From UHGV virus genome UHGV-1374863: a stretch of 37,142 bases of DNA; one strand, 5' to 3'. This document shows positions 1 to 37,122 of the stretch, in pieces (within the stretch, counting starts at the first letter, position 1; each line of letters begins with the position of its first letter). Position numbers and translations under genes: made by a program. Under the pieces are notes generated by a model, which saw only the letters and a program-made list of their open reading frames with translations, did not search any database and had not been told where the DNA came from. This stretch comes from a virus.

Positions 1-60
1 CATTGCTCTTTATTTTCAAATACAGATTAATGTTGTATAAAGTAACCCTGATTTTCACTC

Positions 61-90
61 TAGACAAAACGAACATACATTCGGTATAAT
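61..90 (+). promoter_or_regulatory. Sigma-A-like promoter (-35 TAGACA 61-66, 18-nt spacer, -10 TATAAT 85-90) for the 114-362 gene
   Basis: Hexamers read directly; RBS GGAGGG lies 7 nt before the ATG at 114. Confidence 0.5.
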
Positions 91-113
91 TGTACTATTA
101 GGAGGGCGATTTT

Positions 114-362
114 ATGAAAACTAATTATGTAGGAGTAGTTGAAAAGATTAGAATGTTAAGTATGTATCCAAAAATGCTAGTTCGATTCTCATTAGTAACA
201 CAGGACGAAACTATAAACTGTATCGTCTCCAAATGCGAGCTAGCAAATATGTTACTAATGCTACCTGAACAATCTGAATTAGCTGTCTATGGTCATTTGA
301 ATAAACGAAATCAACTTGTAATTGAGAAAATGCTTGTTAGAAAATCTTTGATTAGTGCATAA
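114..362 (+). CDS. Hypothetical 82-aa protein; own promoter and terminator. Unclear whether host or phage cargo
   Basis: ORF with RBS GGAGGG; followed by a terminator at 370-401. Confidence 0.5.
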   Translation: MKTNYVGVVEKIRMLSMYPKMLVRFSLVTQDETINCIVSKCELANMLLMLPEQSELAVYGHLNKRNQLVIEKMLVRKSLISA

Positions 363-369
363 AATAAAA

Positions 370-401
370 CCCCAACTCTTATCTGGAGTTGGAGTTTTTT
401 T
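370..401. terminator. Bidirectional rho-independent terminator: stem CCAACTC/GAGTTGG, T7 on the plus strand and a T-rich run on the minus strand
   Basis: Hairpin 372-392 followed by TTTTTTT at 395-401; the reverse complement is followed by TTATTTT. Ends both the + strand gene and the minus-strand operon 518-2400. Confidence 0.7.
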
Positions 402-517
402 ATAAGCCTACATATCTTAATATCAATTATGACATGTTTTATTTCAATTATATCTATTGATATTAGTAAAAAATACATTAAAGTGCAATAAACCTTATAG
501 CATGATTATCTACCTAA

Positions 518-1186
518 CTATAAATAGTATAACTTTTCTATCCATGATTTTGATACAAATCTTTTGAGATTCAATTTTTGCTGAGTGGATAAATCTATGT
601 TGTAAAAACATATAACTTCTAATAATGTTGTTTTGCAATTACTTAAATCTTGCTTGATTTCATTCATTTCTGTTTTATTTATTTGACGACATAACTTATT
701 TTCCAACATTTTCGTCAATTCAACTTCATTTGCTTTTTTCAAATGTAAAGAATTGGATCTGTTACTATAAATTGAAAAAAGATTATCAATTTTGTTCTTA
801 TGTTTTTGGTATATCAAAAGTCTTTCTCTGTTATCTTTCATAGTTCTATATCCAGTAGATTTATGATCAACATCTTCATCTTCCAATGTAAAAATCATTT
901 TCAAAATTGCTTCAGTACAATTTCTAATTGAAACATTATATGAAACTAGTTCATTCAAGGGTAAAAAATAAAGTAAATTATTCAAATTATATTCAATTAA
1001 ATTTGTAAAATAAGAATAATTACTATCTTCGTCAAGAAAATGAGCTATTTTAGAAAGAGACATCGTAACTTCAAATACATCCTTTACTAAGATTTCTGAT
1101 TTATTATGCGCAAGCGATGTTTCTGGAAAGTAACTCTCCAGATATTCACAATACCTCTTATATTCTGTCTGAATATCCTTTTTCAT
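518..1186 (-). CDS. Hypothetical 222-aa protein, third gene of the ParA-like operon. Lys/Asn-rich, with an R-x4-H (RSNSLH) motif weakly reminiscent of HEPN
   Basis: ATG at 1186, 4 nt after the upstream stop, with RBS AGGATAG; no recognisable family by eye. Confidence 0.6.
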   Translation of the reverse strand: MKKDIQTEYKRYCEYLESYFPETSLAHNKSEILVKDVFEVTMSLSKIAHFLDEDSNYSYFTNLIEYNLNNLLYFLPLNELVSYNVSIRNCTEAILKMIFTLEDEDVDHKSTGYRTMKDNRERLLIYQKHKNKIDNLFSIYSNRSNSLHLKKANEVELTKMLENKLCRQINKTEMNEIKQDLSNCKTTLLEVICFYNIDLSTQQKLNLKRFVSKSWIEKLYYL

Positions 1187-1190
1187 TTAT

Positions 1191-1568
1191 CTATCCTAGT
1201 TGATTAAAAATATCATCAAAGATATTTTTCTTTTTCTTTTTGTATGATACTTTTGTTTTTTGATTAAGAATATCGTCAACTTCAATAAAATTAATTAACT
1301 TTTCTATTAAAATACTTACTTCTTTTTCATCCATCTTTTCAATTGCTCTTATAATTCGTGACAAAAGGATAGTTCTACTCTTAAAAACATATTCTTTAAA
1401 ACTAAAATTTAATTCCGACATTATACCTTTTAAATCTGAATTTTTAGGTGCTATTTTTTTAGAAAGGATTAATGAAGAAAAAATTCCGTACAATTCACTT
1501 TTGACTTGTTCTTCTGAATTATCAATAATTGATACTCTAATTTTTTTAAGTTCATTTCTCAAATCCAT
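1191..1568 (-). CDS. Hypothetical 125-aa protein, second gene of the ParA-like operon. No ParB/RHH signature recognisable
   Basis: Strong RBS AAGGAGG 5 nt before the ATG at 1568. That ATG lies 14 nt inside the parA-like 3' end, suggesting translational coupling. Confidence 0.6.
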   Translation of the reverse strand: MDLRNELKKIRVSIIDNSEEQVKSELYGIFSSLILSKKIAPKNSDLKGIMSELNFSFKEYVFKSRTILLSRIIRAIEKMDEKEVSILIEKLINFIEVDDILNQKTKVSYKKKKKNIFDDIFNQLG

Positions 1569-2400
1569 TAATCCTCCTTTCCATTTCATCAAAAATTGCA
1601 TTTAGATTTTCTAATAATCTTTGATCACTATTATCACTGATAAAGTACAACGGTCGATCAACTAATTTTTTTGAAAATAAAAATCTTTCTTTAAAAAAGT
1701 ACATATTTTTTAACGACTTTGCTGTTTCAATCATATCAACCAAATAATCAGAATCACTATTATATCTAGTAAAGATGACCCCCAAATGTCGTAATGGTTT
1801 ATCTTTAAAATACAATTTATTTGGCTCTTTTATTGCATTAACAACTTTTTCTAACATGGTTATTCCTAAAACTGAATATATACCTGGATCAACAGGAACA
1901 AAATAAAAATCACTCGGAAGTAAAGCGGAAACAGTATACACAGAATATGTGGGTGGACAATCAATCAATATATAATCATATTTCTTCTTTAACTCTTTTT
2001 CTTCAATAAAATTATAAACCGCTCTTTCCATATTCGATGAATTTGATGATCTTTCTAGAAAAATAGTTGATAATGTGCCTGGAATAAGGTCAACTGTAAA
2101 GTTTTGTTCCAGATTCAAAATAACTTCTGAATCTTTTAATTTACCAATCGAAGATGAATCAAAAAGTTTCTGAATAGACTGACTTACTAATCTTAAATTT
2201 TGTTTAGGTTCATTCAAATCTTCTTGATGTCTTAACTTTTTATTTAGAAAAAATGACTGAGTTAAATTAGATTGTGGGTCTAAATCAATAAACAAAACTT
2301 TCTTGTTTTTATTTTTGGCCATAAAATAACCTAGTTCTTTTGTCAGCGTTGTCTTACCCACTCCACCTTTCATATTAATCACCGAAATAACTTTACCCAT
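1552..2400 (-). CDS. ParA/Soj/MinD-family P-loop ATPase (282 aa)
   Basis: Deviant Walker A KGGVGKTT, then FIDLDPQ and Walker B ILIDCPP. Start chosen at MGKVISV (2400); the ORF track extends to 2475 without an RBS. Confidence 0.85.
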   Translation of the reverse strand: MGKVISVINMKGGVGKTTLTKELGYFMAKNKNKKVLFIDLDPQSNLTQSFFLNKKLRHQEDLNEPKQNLRLVSQSIQKLFDSSSIGKLKDSEVILNLEQNFTVDLIPGTLSTIFLERSSNSSNMERAVYNFIEEKELKKKYDYILIDCPPTYSVYTVSALLPSDFYFVPVDPGIYSVLGITMLEKVVNAIKEPNKLYFKDKPLRHLGVIFTRYNSDSDYLVDMIETAKSLKNMYFFKERFLFSKKLVDRPLYFISDNSDQRLLENLNAIFDEMERRINGFEK

Positions 2401-2529
2401 GTACTTCTCCCCCCACATCTTTATATACCTATTTGCATACAGTATATTATAAACAAGGCTTAATAGGCAAATCATATTTTAAAATTATCCCTTATATCAT
2501 ATATAAAGTTCTTATTAAACTTTTATTGA

Positions 2530-2567
2530 TTTTCTATGTAAATAGGTCCACCTTGAATAAGGTGGAC
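2530..2567 (-). terminator. Terminator after the endolysin gene: stem GGTCCACCTT/AAGGTGGAC, followed on the minus strand by CTATTTAC
   Basis: Inverted repeat 2545-2567 immediately downstream of the lysin stop (2583). Confidence 0.55.
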
Positions 2568-2582
2568 TAAAAGACATTATTA

Positions 2583-3689
2583 CTAATATCCAGTTCCCCA
2601 AGTATTGCTAGGATTTCCATCATTTGGTCCAACAGGAATATAAATGCGTGTTCCGTTTACATCAGAACCGCCTAAGAAAACATAGCCATCTGCTACACGA
2701 ACTGAATCATACTTAAAAGTAGAACCTTTCGGCCATACTCCGTATACAGGCGCTGACAAGCTTGGCGCACCGTTGCGAAGAACGATGCCTTCATTTACAC
2801 CAATGGTAAATGTTTTTGCTGGTGTCGGCTTGCTACTTTCCCACAATTCCGCAATGTCACCGTCATTGGCATAACCTAGTAATTTCCCGCTATTTTCAAT
2901 TCGATAAAGATTTTTACGCCCGTTTAGTTTTTGGGTGATAGTTCCTACTTGGGTCCAAAGAGTGTTAGCGTTAATGTGTTGGTCAATTGGCGCATCTGGA
3001 TTTTTGTAGATTGTTGTGAAGCGAACATGCTGCCCAACTTTGTATTTAGGTTGGTTTGGTTTACCTGGGTTCACAATTGTTTCTGAACCGTCCTCAGGAA
3101 GCCCCGTCTGCAAGTCTTGTGCTAACTGCGCCTTATTGATACCCCATTGAGCTAAATAACCATAAGGATCTGTATGGTCGCCCCACCAATTTTTAGTAAT
3201 CCAATCATGCGTTACGATTCCGTACCCTGTGCCGTCGTCTAAATCAAACGTTGCACCAATTTGCGTTGCTAAATCACGAATTAAATTGACATATGCTGCA
3301 TAATCTTTCTTGAACGTTTCTTTATTATTCGTTCGAGCGAGTTCGATTTGTGCATATGCTTTCGCATTCGCTGTCGCTCCTGCACCCCACTGAATCTGTC
3401 CAGCCGGTGCCATCTGCTTCACTCGACCACCAGAACCAACAAAATAAGACACATAAGCACTCGTCCAGTTGCGTTTCATATATGCCGCTTCGTTGTCTAA
3501 ACTATTTGGACCAACATTGTTCCCATTACCCGACTCATGTAAGACAATTAATTCATTTGTCGCATATCCTGGAAAATATCCGCCAAAATTAATCGGGTCT
3601 TGCTCCACTTGGTATGCATTTGCGCCAATCGGCAACATAAAACTTAACGACATTCCGACAGCAACTAATAATTTAACAGTTTTTTTCAT
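2583..3689 (-). CDS. Endolysin: N-acetylmuramoyl-L-alanine amidase (Amidase_2/PGRP-like) with an N-terminal signal peptide and two C-terminal SH3b-like cell-wall-binding repeats
   Basis: N-terminus MKKTVKLLVAVGMSLSFMLPIGANA; amidase motifs IVLHESGN and QIQWGAG; directly downstream of the holin. Confidence 0.85.
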   Translation of the reverse strand: MKKTVKLLVAVGMSLSFMLPIGANAYQVEQDPINFGGYFPGYATNELIVLHESGNGNNVGPNSLDNEAAYMKRNWTSAYVSYFVGSGGRVKQMAPAGQIQWGAGATANAKAYAQIELARTNNKETFKKDYAAYVNLIRDLATQIGATFDLDDGTGYGIVTHDWITKNWWGDHTDPYGYLAQWGINKAQLAQDLQTGLPEDGSETIVNPGKPNQPKYKVGQHVRFTTIYKNPDAPIDQHINANTLWTQVGTITQKLNGRKNLYRIENSGKLLGYANDGDIAELWESSKPTPAKTFTIGVNEGIVLRNGAPSLSAPVYGVWPKGSTFKYDSVRVADGYVFLGGSDVNGTRIYIPVGPNDGNPSNTWGTGY

Positions 3690-3742
3690 TTAAAAACCTC
3701 TCTCCTATTTTTTAAACAAAAAAAGAAACGACACAAGCCGCT

Positions 3743-4141
3743 TCAATTTTTGTCTTTATTTCGTAATTGAATAAAATAATCCTTTAACTTTTCTGGTAAA
3801 GGAATGAATTCCAATACATTCTCGCAAAATGAAATGCCTTCATTTGCAATGTAAAAAATAATCACCATTTCCCTAATAGGAATATTATTCCCTACAATAC
3901 TTTCAACTTTCACAGAAACTGCCACTACAAATAAAATCATTACTTTTTTGGCGATTCCCAACATACCTATTTTGCTTGATAGTGATTTAGTAGCGATTGC
4001 TTTAAGCCAACCTGTTACAAAATCAACAATCATCAAAAATAACAAAACATCTAGCAACTGATCCATTCCCCCAAGAAAGCTAACGCAAATACCACCTACA
4101 ATACTTGCTGCAATTGACAGGTGGTTAAAATATTTTTCCAC
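3743..4141 (-). CDS. Holin (phage_holin_4_1-like, 132 aa, 3 predicted TM segments)
   Basis: Small multi-TM protein immediately upstream of the lysin. Confidence 0.75.
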   Translation of the reverse strand: MEKYFNHLSIAASIVGGICVSFLGGMDQLLDVLLFLMIVDFVTGWLKAIATKSLSSKIGMLGIAKKVMILFVVAVSVKVESIVGNNIPIREMVIIFYIANEGISFCENVLEFIPLPEKLKDYFIQLRNKDKN

Positions 4142-4190
4142 TGACTCACCTCCAAATTTTGATAAATAGATATTCCTGCTTTTTTAATAA

Positions 4191-4994
4191 TTACAAAGTA
4201 AGTGAACCATCGCTATTAGGCGTTAACTTGATTACAGTACCAAGACCGACATTACCAGTTTTTGGATAAGGATCATCCGTAGTCCATGTACAAACGCCAT
4301 ATTGATTACCAAATTGCCCCGACATAAAAGTCACACGATTTGGATAATTATTGTTTCCTGGTTCTAGGTGCATTTTTACTACTTTTTGAGTACTAGGTGT
4401 AGCAGTTGAGTTAACAGCGAACGGAATGTTCCATATTGCGCCCAAATCTTCAGCGCCAGTTGCGTAAGTAGCTCTAAATCCTTCTGGAATCATTAACAAT
4501 ACATTGTTTTTTGGTTCAGTATCAGTTTTTGCCACGTTTACACGGATATGACACGTGACGACATTTCCAATTCTGATACATGTGACCTCTAATTGATTTA
4601 CTGCGTTAGTGTCAGGGGATCCCGATTGTTTATAAACAAATTTGTCAAATTGGCCATTATCAACAATCAGTTTTTTCCATGCTGTCCATGTAGCAGGACT
4701 TCCTTGTCGACTGCGGATATAGGTTTCACCCTTGTACATATAATTTTGACAAATAAACGTATTATCTGCGTAAACAACTAATACACCGTAAACAGCGCCA
4801 GCGTAAGGTCTGTTTGCGCCAGAAGCACCGAAAACAGTGTAAATACCTTCATCTAAAACTGTGTCCCAGTCCTGCGCCTTAATAACGGTTTTTTTAGCAA
4901 CTAGCGCACCATTTTCTAACGAGCTTGTAATTTCGTTAAAATTTTCATTCAGCATGACTTGGTAGTCTGCATCACCTTTTTTAAATGTATACAT
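4191..4994 (-). CDS. Tail fibre / receptor-binding protein candidate (267 aa)
   Basis: Last structural gene before the lysis cassette; Gly/Thr-rich beta-type composition. Confidence 0.4.
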   Translation of the reverse strand: MYTFKKGDADYQVMLNENFNEITSSLENGALVAKKTVIKAQDWDTVLDEGIYTVFGASGANRPYAGAVYGVLVVYADNTFICQNYMYKGETYIRSRQGSPATWTAWKKLIVDNGQFDKFVYKQSGSPDTNAVNQLEVTCIRIGNVVTCHIRVNVAKTDTEPKNNVLLMIPEGFRATYATGAEDLGAIWNIPFAVNSTATPSTQKVVKMHLEPGNNNYPNRVTFMSGQFGNQYGVCTWTTDDPYPKTGNVGLGTVIKLTPNSDGSLTL

Positions 4995-31797: not shown

Positions 31798-31844
31798 TTA
31801 CTTATCAACATAATTCTGTTGAATAAGGAATGGAGGTGATTGCT

Positions 31845-32378
31845 ATGAATAATGAACTTTTCTCGGGTGTTTTAATAGCTTTAATAGGTTTTTTAGGTGC
31901 AATCTTTGGCGGAAAATATTCTGCTAAAACTGAAAAACAAGTTACTTCAAGAATTATTTTCGAAAAAGCATACTCAGAGATATTCCTATTAATTGAAAAT
32001 GATTTTTACAACAAAAAACTTACAGACGAGCAGATAACTGATCTTGGTCTAGAAATTAATGAAATCTTAGAAAAAGCTGATGGATATTACTATCCTTCGC
32101 TCAAACAATATGCACAATGGATGTTCGATCCTGAATATACTCAAAATCTGCAAGAGCTTTGGCATTCTTTCTGTTGGACATTTGATAGACAGTACGAAAA
32201 AGTTTGCTCTGACATCGGTTTACCTACTAGAAGCAGATACTATCGAATAAACAAAAGACAATATTCCGGTGTTATGCATTTTTTCAAAATTTATTTCTTC
32301 AGTCGGTACACATGGGCAGATATTTTATTAATTGCTCTTCTTGTGTTATTAATAACATTATTCAAAATAACCAATTAA
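31845..32378 (+). CDS. Membrane protein (N- and C-terminal TM helices flanking a ~120-aa soluble domain): moron, candidate superinfection-exclusion or abortive-infection protein
   Basis: Opposite strand to the early operon, own promoter, followed by a strong hairpin at 32399-32438. Confidence 0.6.
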   Translation: MNNELFSGVLIALIGFLGAIFGGKYSAKTEKQVTSRIIFEKAYSEIFLLIENDFYNKKLTDEQITDLGLEINEILEKADGYYYPSLKQYAQWMFDPEYTQNLQELWHSFCWTFDRQYEKVCSDIGLPTRSRYYRINKRQYSGVMHFFKIYFFSRYTWADILLIALLVLLITLFKITN

Positions 32379-32746: not shown

Positions 32747-33337
32747 TTGAAAGAATTATTACTAAAAGACTTTATTACTATTGGTATATCTTCTATAGCT
32801 CTTTTGATTTCACTGATAAACTTATATAGAGATAGAAAAAATATTAGCGTTAGGATAACGAATCAAACTCTTATAAAAAGAATAGAAACTTATGATAAAG
32901 AGCCGGCTTTTCCAAATCAATCAGCTGGTGTATCAATCGGCTTCAGATTTTTAAATACTTCTAAACACTCGATTGGTTATTATGATCTTGTTTTTAAAGA
33001 CGGACATACGAATCAATTACTTCCTTGTACGTATAAATTTGCTTTACGGCCCGAGATTGCTAATCAGGAACTATTAGGCATAACTCCCTTGGATGAAATT
33101 ACACATTTAAATTTTATGGATTCAAATTATGGAGTAATCCCAGCTAACTCTTATGTTTTGAAAGAAGTAATTGTTTATCCTATATCGGACAAAATCCGAG
33201 TTAATATTAAATTTGCTAAATCAACCATCATTCCTAATTTTAGAAGCGAAACTACTAAATTTAAGAAATGGAAGTCTACCCTAATTAAACTCACTGATGA
33301 AGAAATCAGCACTATTATTCAAGAAAATCAAAAATAG
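32747..33337 (+). CDS. N-terminally membrane-anchored protein with a beta-rich extracytoplasmic domain (TTG start): moron, candidate surface exclusion protein
   Basis: ORF with N-terminal TM helix; opposite strand to the early genes. Confidence 0.5.
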   Translation: MKELLLKDFITIGISSIALLISLINLYRDRKNISVRITNQTLIKRIETYDKEPAFPNQSAGVSIGFRFLNTSKHSIGYYDLVFKDGHTNQLLPCTYKFALRPEIANQELLGITPLDEITHLNFMDSNYGVIPANSYVLKEVIVYPISDKIRVNIKFAKSTIIPNFRSETTKFKKWKSTLIKLTDEEISTIIQENQK

Positions 33338-35067: not shown

Positions 35068-35649
35068 ATGAAAATAGTTAAATTGTTTGGGGTATCTCTA
35101 TTCTCTTTTGCCATCTTGGCTGGGTGTTCATCTACTGATAACAGTACGTCAGAAGTAAATAAATTAAAGACAACTGTATCAAGTTTAAAAGAGGAAAATA
35201 AAAAATTAAGCACAAAAGCTAGTCAGCTTGATGAAATACTTGATGCTTTCGGAACTACCGATTCTAGTAAGCAGGAAGGCCAGTCTACTGACTCATCCAA
35301 TACTTTAAAATTTAATGAATCTGGAACGTTTGGTAGTGGCGAAAAAATTACAGTCATTTCTGCTGAAGATGCGCCCAATCATCAATTGCATGAACCAAAA
35401 GATGGTGAACATCCTGTGGAAGTAAAAGCAATTGTAGAGAATACTACTAGTTCACCTATCAGCTTTAATGTTCAAAATTTTGCCATGTATGATAGTAACT
35501 CTGAATTAGCTGATTTCGATGCGAGCACGTATCAAAACAATATACCTAATGATATAGCTGCTGGAATGAAAGCTAATATAACTTTTTACTTCTCTTCAAA
35601 AGGTTCTGGTCCATATGTTGTTACATTTGGAGATGGTATGTGGAAGTAA
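35068..35649 (+). CDS. Lipoprotein (lipobox LAGC), prophage-encoded candidate superinfection-exclusion protein
   Basis: Signal peptide MKIVKLFGVSLFSFAILAGC; lies between the immunity genes and the integrase. Confidence 0.7.
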   Translation: MKIVKLFGVSLFSFAILAGCSSTDNSTSEVNKLKTTVSSLKEENKKLSTKASQLDEILDAFGTTDSSKQEGQSTDSSNTLKFNESGTFGSGEKITVISAEDAPNHQLHEPKDGEHPVEVKAIVENTTSSPISFNVQNFAMYDSNSELADFDASTYQNNIPNDIAAGMKANITFYFSSKGSGPYVVTFGDGMWK

Positions 35650-35727
35650 TAAATATCTCTTCTCTGGTGAGTTCAAGCGTGTTCGATTCACGCTAAGGGC
35701 TTCAATATTATGAAAGGAGAAAGTGAA

Positions 35728-37122
35728 TTGGATAAAAAAGCAGCTATCTATATCCGTGTATCCACTCAAGAACAAGCAACTGAAGGATATTCGATTCAAG
35801 CCCAAACCGATAGACTGACAAAATACGTTGAAGCCAAAGACTTTATTTTATACAAAAAGTATATCGATGCTGGCTATAGTGCTTCAAAATTAGAACGACC
35901 AGCGATGCAAGAACTGATTCAAGACGTGAAGTCTAAGAAAGTTGATGTAGTAATTGTCTATAAGCTTGATCGTCTCTCTCGTTCTCAAAAAGATACTATG
36001 TACTTAATTGAAGATATTTTCAGACCTAATGATGTTGAACTTATTTCAATGCAAGAAAGTTTTGATACATCTACCGCTTTTGGATCGGCGACTGTTGGAA
36101 TGCTATCCGTTTTCGCACAACTCGAACGTAAATCAATATCAGAGCGCATGATTACTGGTCGAGTCGAACGTGCAAAAAAGGGTTTTTATCACACAGGAGG
36201 ACAAGACAGACCCCCTGCTGGTTATCAGTTTAATAGTGATAACCAACTTATAATTAACGAGTATGAAGCAGCAGCGATTAAAGACTTGTTCAGGCTTTAT
36301 AATGATGGACTAGGAAAAAGCTCTATATCGGAATATCTTAAAAAAAATTATCCTGGCAAAAACAAATGGCTACCTAGCAGTATTGATCGCATGCTAAAAA
36401 ATTCATTATATATTGGCAAGGTAAAATTTTCAGGGGTCGAATATGATGGCATTCATGAACCTATAATTGACGAAGTCACCTTCTATAAAACTCAAAAAGA
36501 GATAGCCCGGAGAAAACAAAGCAATACTAAGCGATATAACTATGTTGCATTGTTGGGCGGATTATGTGAATGTGGCATTTGTGGCGCTAAAATGGCTAAC
36601 CGAAGAGCTGTCGGCCGTAAAGGAAAAGTCTATAGATATTATCGGTGCTACTCAAAAAAAGGTAGTCCTAAGCACATGATGAAAACAGATGGTTGTTCTT
36701 CTAAAGCGCAACAACAATTCATCATTGACGAAGCTGTTATAAACAATTTGAAAAACATTGACGTTGAGGCAGAATTAAAAAGGCGATCTGCTCCACAAAC
36801 GAATACATCCTTAATAAGTTCGCAAATCGAGAGTATCGACAAGCAAATAAACAAGTTAATTGATTTATTTCAAGTAGATTCAATGCCACTCGATGTAATT
36901 AGTGAAAAAATCGATAAATTGAATAAAGAAAAGCAAAGTATGGAAAAATTACTTGAACGAAAAAATAGACTAGATAAAACAGAACTACAACATCGATTTG
37001 ATATTTTAAAATCTTTTGATTGGGATAATTCAAGTATTGAAAGTAAAAGAGCAGTTATCGAAATGTTGGTTCAAAAAGTCATTATTCATGACAATTCAAT
37101 AGAAATTATACTTGTTGAGTAG
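35728..37122 (+). CDS. int: Large serine recombinase (integrase) with resolvase catalytic domain, recombinase domain and C-terminal zinc-ribbon/coiled-coil
   Basis: AAIYIRVSTQEQ catalytic Ser motif; VYKLDRLSRS; Cys cluster CECGICG...CYSKKG. TTG start at 35728 preceded by AAGGAG; the in-frame ATG at 35710 has no RBS. Confidence 0.9.
   Translation: MDKKAAIYIRVSTQEQATEGYSIQAQTDRLTKYVEAKDFILYKKYIDAGYSASKLERPAMQELIQDVKSKKVDVVIVYKLDRLSRSQKDTMYLIEDIFRPNDVELISMQESFDTSTAFGSATVGMLSVFAQLERKSISERMITGRVERAKKGFYHTGGQDRPPAGYQFNSDNQLIINEYEAAAIKDLFRLYNDGLGKSSISEYLKKNYPGKNKWLPSSIDRMLKNSLYIGKVKFSGVEYDGIHEPIIDEVTFYKTQKEIARRKQSNTKRYNYVALLGGLCECGICGAKMANRRAVGRKGKVYRYYRCYSKKGSPKHMMKTDGCSSKAQQQFIIDEAVINNLKNIDVEAELKRRSAPQTNTSLISSQIESIDKQINKLIDLFQVDSMPLDVISEKIDKLNKEKQSMEKLLERKNRLDKTELQHRFDILKSFDWDNSSIESKRAVIEMLVQKVIIHDNSIEIILVE

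Follow-up and report, generated by a model that had tools for sequence, protein, structure and literature searches.

Pairs of genes encoding a ParA/Soj-like ATPase and a HEPN protein of the MAE_18760 family were predicted in silico to form toxin-antitoxin systems by Anantharaman et al. (2013; PMC3710099). In these pairs the ATPase gene lies directly upstream of the HEPN-type gene, the two make up a mobile unit, and the ATPase is predicted to regulate an RNase toxin (PMC3710099). Here we describe a cassette of comparable layout in UHGV virus genome UHGV-1374863, a temperate phage of Enterococcus faecalis that is of the phiFC1/EFC-1 type, which was analysed as a single stretch of 37,142 nucleotides (the window). 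Between the lysin gene and a bidirectional terminator, its minus strand carries three tightly coupled genes: a ParA-like ATPase gene (2400-1552, 282 amino acids), open reading frame 2 (ORF2; 1568-1191, 125 amino acids) and ORF3 (1186-518, 222 amino acids). Like the predicted pair, the cassette is a mobile unit with the ATPase gene upstream of a probable HEPN-like gene. It differs in having an always-present gene for a proposed adaptor between the two, in an ORF3 that matches no MAE_28990/MAE_18760 or other HEPN model and whose family does not conserve the arginine of the HEPN Rx4-6H motif throughout, and in parA-null alleles that argue against an ATPase acting as antitoxin. No paper describing the ParA/ORF2/ORF3 trio was found in a literature search. 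The preliminary description of this locus, made from the sequence, had called the system undescribed, which overstates its novelty because a ParA/Soj-HEPN pair was predicted in 2013 (PMC3710099), although that pair had another HEPN family and no middle gene.

Other described systems share part of this organization. AbiD/AbiF, AbiV and HepS, the last a prophage-encoded HEPN tRNA nuclease (PMC13043305), are HEPN abortive-infection proteins found on prophages and plasmids. As is proposed for ORF3, they are helical HEPN-type effectors in prophage accessory slots, and AbiD occurs in the equivalent slot of phage IME197. They act as single proteins or with an RNA antitoxin (PMC13064643), whereas in the cassette two partners, both proteins and one a ParA-type ATPase, are obligatory, and PADLOC gave no sequence match to any of these families. 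In the type VII toxin-antitoxin system HEPN-MNT (HepT/MntA) the partner is a nucleotidyltransferase that AMPylates the toxin, where the cassette has a P-loop ATPase and a proposed adaptor. ParABS, MinDE and McdAB resemble it in combining a deviant Walker A ATPase with a small partner that bears a basic peptide on a flexible arm, but in the cassette this peptide is C-terminal rather than N-terminal, there is no DNA-binding domain, centromere or plasmid context, and the third gene is nuclease-like. In tripartite toxin-antitoxin-chaperone (TAC) systems, the middle protein is extended at its C-terminus, and this extension is gripped by the third protein, a SecB-like chaperone with a regulatory role; the likeness of three genes is an analogy only, the proteins (SecB-like chaperone and ParA ATPase) being unrelated.

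The balance of evidence tilts toward a three-component accessory (moron) conflict module that is expressed from the prophage and acts in abortive infection, in defence or as a toxin-antitoxin system. Its location and domains suggest an anti-phage function, and the comparative sequence evidence supports the exclusion or abortive-infection system proposed in the preliminary description as a candidate.

A conserved three-gene unit and its genomic settings

The genes of the window overlap or nearly abut, as the preliminary description had claimed in calling them co-directional and coupled. The ATG of ORF2 (1568-1566) lies 14 nt before the TGA of the parA-like gene (1554-1552), giving a 17-nt overlap, and the ATG of ORF3 (1186-1184) lies 4 nt beyond the TAG of ORF2 (1193-1191). 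The longest reading frame of the parA-like gene spans 2475-1552, and its likely start is the ATG at 2400, 3' of the purine-rich GGGGGGAGAAG at 2404-2414. The observation that the cassette is more AT-rich than the phage body also holds, with GC content of 24-28% over positions 500-2500 compared to 35-42% in most of the phage body, and what that description read from the sequence was borne out.

Judged by sequence comparison, the trio is a conserved mobile unit. Searches of 5.8 billion proteins returned 13 close homologues of ORF3 and 28 of ORF2, and an ORF3 profile found only 73 relatives among 1.84 billion cluster representatives, nearly all of them 215-247 amino acids long and matched end to end. 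Every locus that could be read (more than 25, all in Bacilli) encodes a ParA-like protein of 282-325 amino acids, a small protein of 113-155 amino acids and then a protein of approximately 220-250 amino acids, and throughout the loci inspected the three genes point the same way and either overlap or abut. The same order is kept in loci reached through ORF3 at 23-29% and through ParA at 42-46% identity. Because order and size are conserved across this many loci down to 23-29% identity, we consider the cassette genes real. Host genera include Enterococcus, Vagococcus, Lactococcus, Marinilactibacillus, Listeria, Staphylococcus, Mammaliicoccus and Bacillus. A locus search with the alignment of close homologues found only one GTDB species genome and two IMG/VR contigs, and tblastn with ORF3 gave no match in 50,697 deposited phage genomes.

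Two diverged outliers, one on an IMG/VR contig (L035, 6056-7968) and one in Lactococcus phage PLg-TB25 (L036, 3492-5489), keep the architecture and the key motifs. Their small proteins end in a different C-terminus (…FDGWI and …EGWRNIINPRS), and their third proteins fall below the family hidden Markov model (HMM), yet retain the R-x3-E and S-x3-H motifs. All three cassette genes of PLg-TB25 are annotated as 'hypothetical'.

The cassette occurs in a range of settings. In five different prophages (the window, L003, L008, L013 and L019, the last being the comK prophage of Listeria) it follows the lysin at the end of the prophage. Other copies stand between cI/ImmA and a tyrosine integrase (L014, L021-23), just upstream of the terminase (L010, L035) or, in Lactococcus, within an integrative island that has a VapE primase (L006, L007, L009), and one adjoins a KAP NTPase (L017). 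It is also found in plain chromosome: in Vagococcus between rpsI and a glyoxalase gene (L001), in S. pseudintermedius beside an IS6-type element (L015), and in B. velezensis beside a 1030-residue helicase (L018). At the Listeria monocytogenes comK prophage end (L019, 8198-9544), a gene for an LXG-EndoU polymorphic toxin and a small gene beyond it come directly after the cassette, before the comK fragment; the two add another conflict module to this end of the prophage.

In the window, the cassette fills the cargo position of a slot that we define as integrase, orf82, cargo and lysin. The same slot in phage EFC-1 holds a TIR protein (L024, 2041-2883; PADLOC PDC-S66, 6.5e-83), and in phage IME197 it holds AbiD (7.8e-53) together with a ThsB-like TIR protein and a membrane protein of the SLATT/DUF4231 type (L025, 5398-7720). 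Since these related E. faecalis phages carry TIR and AbiD genes there, we regard the interval between orf82 and the lysin as a defence hotspot, in agreement with the earlier view of the post-lysin junction; comparison of this slot between relatives, which the preliminary description had put forward as a check, shows other genes, of defence type, at the position of the cassette in EFC-1 and IME197.

The ParA-type ATPase

By motifs and by profile matches, the first gene encodes a member of the ParA/MinD (deviant Walker A, SIMIBI) superfamily. The motifs KGGVGKTT, DLDPQ and ILIDCPP, from which a ParA/Soj-type P-loop protein had been recognized, are present, and Pfam AAA_31 matches at 2.2e-37 (129 bits, cut-off 27). 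CbiA matches at 5.3e-20 (72 bits, cut-off 25.4) and the ParA-like PHROG 164 at 2.1e-45; the nearest solved structure is Soj 6iub (4e-15), and the protein is 100% identical to a database entry named 'ParA family protein [Enterococcus faecalis]'. The deviant Walker A motif KGGVGKTT (2347-2370, minus strand; residues 11-18, including the signature Lys11) is invariant in most of 14 aligned cassette ParAs, with serine or cysteine at the second glycine in L012, L013 and L017. In PADLOC-DB v2.0.0, the sole match of the cassette was a 40-residue P-loop stretch of the ATPase to PDC-M28B (4.2e-5), an identity that we rejected as the match spans the P-loop only.

An ATPase of this family, together with ORF2 as a ParB-, McdB- or MinE-like partner, might instead form a partition or positioning system, or the relic of one, that places phage or plasmid DNA or a cargo such as ORF3. 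The ATPase is a true ParA/MinD-family protein, ORF2 is small and bears a basic peptide on a flexible arm, as ParA partners generally do, and the annotation given to such genes by PHROG and NCBI is that of partition proteins. However, the ATPase falls under every NCBIfam partition equivalog cut-off (ParA_partition, 72.9 bits against 180; RepA, 59 against 348; PrgP, 57 against 400), and the closest plasmid ParA is at most 36.5% identical, compared to 42-77% among cassette ParAs. ORF3 had no tblastn match in 72,556 PLSDB plasmids. A repeat search found no centromere-like, iteron or parS-like arrays, only two-copy repeats inside coding sequence. Scans with Pfam, NCBIfam and PHROGs gave no ParB, helix-turn-helix or ribbon-helix-helix domain in ORF2 or ORF3, consistent with the lack of ParB and ribbon-helix-helix hallmarks noted earlier. 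The cassette resides not on autonomous elements but in integrated prophages that encode a serine or tyrosine integrase, in islands, or in plain chromosome such as that beside rpsI. On these grounds we rejected plasmid-type partition, we consider the DNA partition reading largely refuted, and we judge a positioning system or relic of any kind to be very improbable. These results, with the serine integrase of the phage itself, bear out the earlier view of the cassette as accessory cargo rather than plasmid partition, and the annotation 'ParA family protein' in prophages is no evidence of plasmid-like maintenance.

Two natural alleles bear on what the ATPase may do. In Enterococcus aquimarinus DSM 17690 (L011, 6737-7606), an in-frame TGA stands at about codon 55 of parA, where relatives have glycine, and ORF2 and ORF3 are intact. 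In L002, a metagenomic contig identical to the Vagococcus locus L001 over the stretches compared, a run of seven T (540-570) replaces the eight T at the same point of the gene in L001 (6890-6910), causing a frameshift, again with ORF2 and ORF3 intact. If these alleles are real, the HEPN-like protein is tolerated by cells that lack the ATPase; such tolerance speaks against the 2013 proposal of the ATPase as antitoxin, and is better matched by a scheme in which ORF2 inhibits and the ATPase activates or senses. We give this better fit of an activator or sensor than of an essential antitoxin little weight, because both alleles could be errors.

The same alleles bear on whether the cassette is purely an addiction module, in which ORF3 as toxin and ORF2 and/or the ATPase as antitoxin would stabilize the prophage or island with no role against other phages. 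A small upstream gene that overlaps or abuts a larger HEPN-like gene is a typical toxin-antitoxin order, the 2013 prediction took ParA/Soj-HEPN pairs as toxin-antitoxin systems (PMC3710099), and the cassette is always on mobile elements or islands. The bona fide defence genes in the slot of sister phages count against this explanation, as do the parA-null alleles with intact ORF3 where the ATPase is taken as the antitoxin. We think pure addiction unlikely; it overlaps with a conflict module in the broader sense because many toxin-antitoxin systems also act in defence.

A candidate HEPN-like effector and its proposed adaptor

ORF3 is predicted to be all-helical, and the best matches of its structure model are HEPN folds. 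Its predicted layout, with a helical hairpin (residues 58-77 and 80-102), an insert, a helix at 130-145 and a kinked last helix, appears to fit the description of HEPN domains (PMC3710099). The R-x4-H motif that the preliminary description had noted in the 222-residue protein without interpreting it is RSNSLH (R143-x4-H148; residues 143-148, nt 760-743 on the minus strand) and is a HEPN hallmark; it spans the junction between the predicted helix 130-145 and the loop that comes next, the same position as described for the Rx4-6H motif (PMC3710099). RSNSLH is invariant in the 13 closest ORF3 homologues. Across a family of 65 diverged members, R88, S144 and H148 are invariant and E92 is present in at least 90%, a pattern that points to catalysis. 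R88 and E92 lie in the stretch R88-N-C-T-E92 (911-925, minus strand) of the predicted helix 80-102 and are likely the second half of the active site; helix 2 of HEPN domains carries an acidic residue that is conserved and lies close to the motif (PMC3710099), and E92 is its likely counterpart. We describe ORF3 as HEPN-like, with an apparently shifted arginine. The fold assignment is only moderately secure, and RNA-cleaving nuclease activity is probable.

Assignment to a known HEPN family was attempted without success. Cthe_2314, given without gene context in PMC3710099, was rejected: its Pfam model HEPN_Cthe2314 gave no hit at E<=10 with the homologue P0011 and six further members, nor at E<=0.1 with 65 members, despite the UniProt name of P0011, 'Cthe-2314-like HEPN domain-containing protein'. 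The MAE_18760 family was rejected in the absence of any MAE_28990/MAE_18760-like model match in Pfam scans. The newer Pfam entry PF27768 (UCP033725) weakly matches P0013.

ORF2 is built of a predicted helical-bundle domain (approximately residues 1-97), a disordered lysine-rich linker and a C-terminal peptide, and has no match in Pfam, NCBIfam or PADLOC. Its conserved C-terminal peptide, KKKKKNIFDDIFNQLG (1194-1241, minus strand), is a candidate ParA-contacting, ATPase-stimulating motif. Across 19 ORF2 homologues that are otherwise 46-61% identical, NIFDDIF-Q-G is invariant; in distant cassettes the tail degenerates to phi-D-x-[IL]-[LF]-x-Q-[FL]-G. In the group of cassettes with the invariant tail, ParA is 67-76% identical and ORF3 only 42-63%, and the tail thus tracks the slow pace of the ATPase rather than the drift of ORF3. 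The tail shows basic residues and then phi-x-x-phi-F-N-Q-phi, a pattern similar to that of the N-terminal peptide through which ParB/Spo0J stimulates ParA, for example GLGRGLEALL in T. thermophilus Spo0J (1vz0). For B. subtilis Spo0J, we take the N-terminus (residues 1-20) to be MAKGLGKGINALFNQV, part of a sequence that was confirmed from residue 21 on only. ParA/MinD partners act through short basic peptides (Soj-Spo0J, ParF-ParG, MinD-MinE), and by analogy with them the ORF2 tail may stimulate the ATPase. We propose that ORF2 is an adaptor or an inhibitor.

The ORF2 allele of the window also contains a 20-nt direct repeat with 90% identity between its copies (1200-1219 and 1260-1279), which encode FDDIFNQ and VDDILNQ. 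The linker of this allele thereby holds a second, internal copy of the tail motif, not seen in the other homologues.

The scheme that we infer for the conflict module gives it an RNase activity, a set of binding partners, a trigger and an anti-phage phenotype. ORF3 would be the effector, HEPN-like and probably RNA-cleaving, with a site formed by R88 and E92 in helix 2 and S144 and H148 at the end of helix 3, to which R143 would be added in the closest relatives of the window protein. The helical domain of ORF2 would hold this effector, and its flexible lysine-rich C-terminal peptide would dock on the ATPase as the peptides of ParB, MinE and ParG do on their ParA/MinD partners. The ATPase would be an ATP-dependent dimerization switch that engages ORF2 upon an infection cue, and this engagement would release the RNase or switch it on, so that translation and phage growth stop. 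Nucleoid disruption or phage DNA could be the trigger, given that the state of DNA or of ATP is what ParA dimers sense. To our knowledge, the ParA/MinD family was previously known for positioning DNA and protein cargo. Our more specific proposal, that such an ATPase is the sensor or switch of a new immunity class and controls a divergent HEPN-like RNase via an adaptor with a ParB-like C-terminal ATPase-stimulating peptide, is tentative and may well prove wrong.

Several observations weigh against the conflict module and its proposed mechanism. R143 is found only in the closest ORF3 members (the window, P0005, P0011 and P0042) and is replaced in most of the 65-member family. HEPN Pfam models matched none of approximately 70 family members, apart from one hit at 0.01 to HEPN_STY4199; it is for this lack of a HEPN match in Pfam or PDB, and for the restricted R143, that we call ORF3 only HEPN-like. 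The best Foldseek match of the ORF3 model in PDB has an E-value of 0.16, and the ORF3 family profile found none among PDB sequences. ORF3 has no match in Pfam, NCBIfam or PADLOC, the last also returning nothing for four distant homologues, and PADLOC v2 has no model for any cassette protein beyond the 40-residue P-loop hit. The ORF2 tail and ParB peptides are alike over no more than about eight residues, which could be chance; the tail might just as well bind ORF3 or form an amphipathic helix that binds membranes. Both parA-null alleles could reflect sequencing or assembly errors, decay or phase variation. Finally, the evidence for the promoter region that the preliminary description had assigned to the cassette does not exceed chance: the upstream intergenic region (2401-2545, minus strand) has a Shine-Dalgarno sequence at 2404-2414 and promoter-like hexamers at 2470-2441 and 2500-2471, but the number of such hexamers upstream of the parA-like gene (24) shows no excess over that expected in shuffled sequence (20).

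The lack of a HEPN HMM match and of a family-wide Rx4H arginine would also suit a role in the phage life cycle or in counter-defence (host takeover, control of lysis and lysogeny, or inhibition of host immunity), with ORF3 as a non-catalytic helical scaffold, and so would the copies just upstream of the terminase. Such a role sits poorly with the phage-free cassettes in the chromosomes of Vagococcus, S. pseudintermedius and B. velezensis, with the cassette's own terminators and atypical GC content, and with the catalytic appearance of the residues conserved throughout the ORF3 family. We consider it improbable.

Surroundings of the cassette and wider relevance

The terminators proposed to flank the cassette fared differently. 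The bidirectional intrinsic terminator (366-398, both strands; z -4.4 and -4.2), which closes the cassette and the convergent orf82, is well supported. On the lysin side, a GC-rich hairpin 3' of the lysin gene (2546-2567, minus strand; -15.7 kcal/mol, z -3.7) is real, but it has no U-tract and was not called by terminator prediction. An Rfam scan of window positions 1-3000 found nothing meaningful, and there is therefore no sign of an RNA antitoxin.

The gene orf82 (114-362, plus strand; 82 amino acids) lies at the left end of the window and belongs to PHROG 15227, of unknown function. Its DNA is 93-94% identical to the integrase-adjacent gene of phiFC1, EFC-1 and IME197, and in EFC-1 and IME197 it follows the integrase directly despite differing neighbouring DNA; it may be the recombination directionality factor of the serine integrase. 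In a megablast search of window positions 1-4200 against the 50,697 deposited phage genomes, orf82 was the sole match, and the lysin/holin region (2583-4200), which includes the amidase/SH3_5 lysin gene (2583-3689), matched nothing. By this comparison, the lysis module of the prophage is unrepresented among sequenced E. faecalis phages at approximately 85% identity or more. The exact ORF3 and ORF2 proteins are present on approximately 160 contigs, including E. faecalis chromosomes of approximately 3 Mb, and we therefore regard the prophage as common.

The right end of the window encodes a Cro-like protein, a cI-like repressor, an ImmA-like protein, a lipoprotein and a large serine integrase (35710-37122), a large recombinase with Resolvase, Recombinase and Zn_ribbon_recom domains. 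The lipoprotein-like gene (35068-35649, plus strand), between the ImmA-like gene and the integrase, has a signal peptide ending in cysteine and a weak DUF4352 match. Two unannotated reading frames (31830-32378 and 32747-33337, both plus strand) lie in the early region past the Cro-like gene and are AT-rich (approximately 30% GC). All three are further possible morons, for instance for superinfection exclusion.

The cassette is clearly defined, widespread and open to experiment, and its regulator is unusual. If it defends against phages, HEPN-based abortive infection would gain a regulator of a new type, in which a ParA/MinD ATPase works with an adaptor that bears a peptide, and the ParA-HEPN association predicted in 2013 would have a testable case. 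With related cassettes in prophages of Lactococcus, Listeria, Staphylococcus, Bacillus and E. faecium, such a system would be of relevance to phage therapy and to dairy strains.

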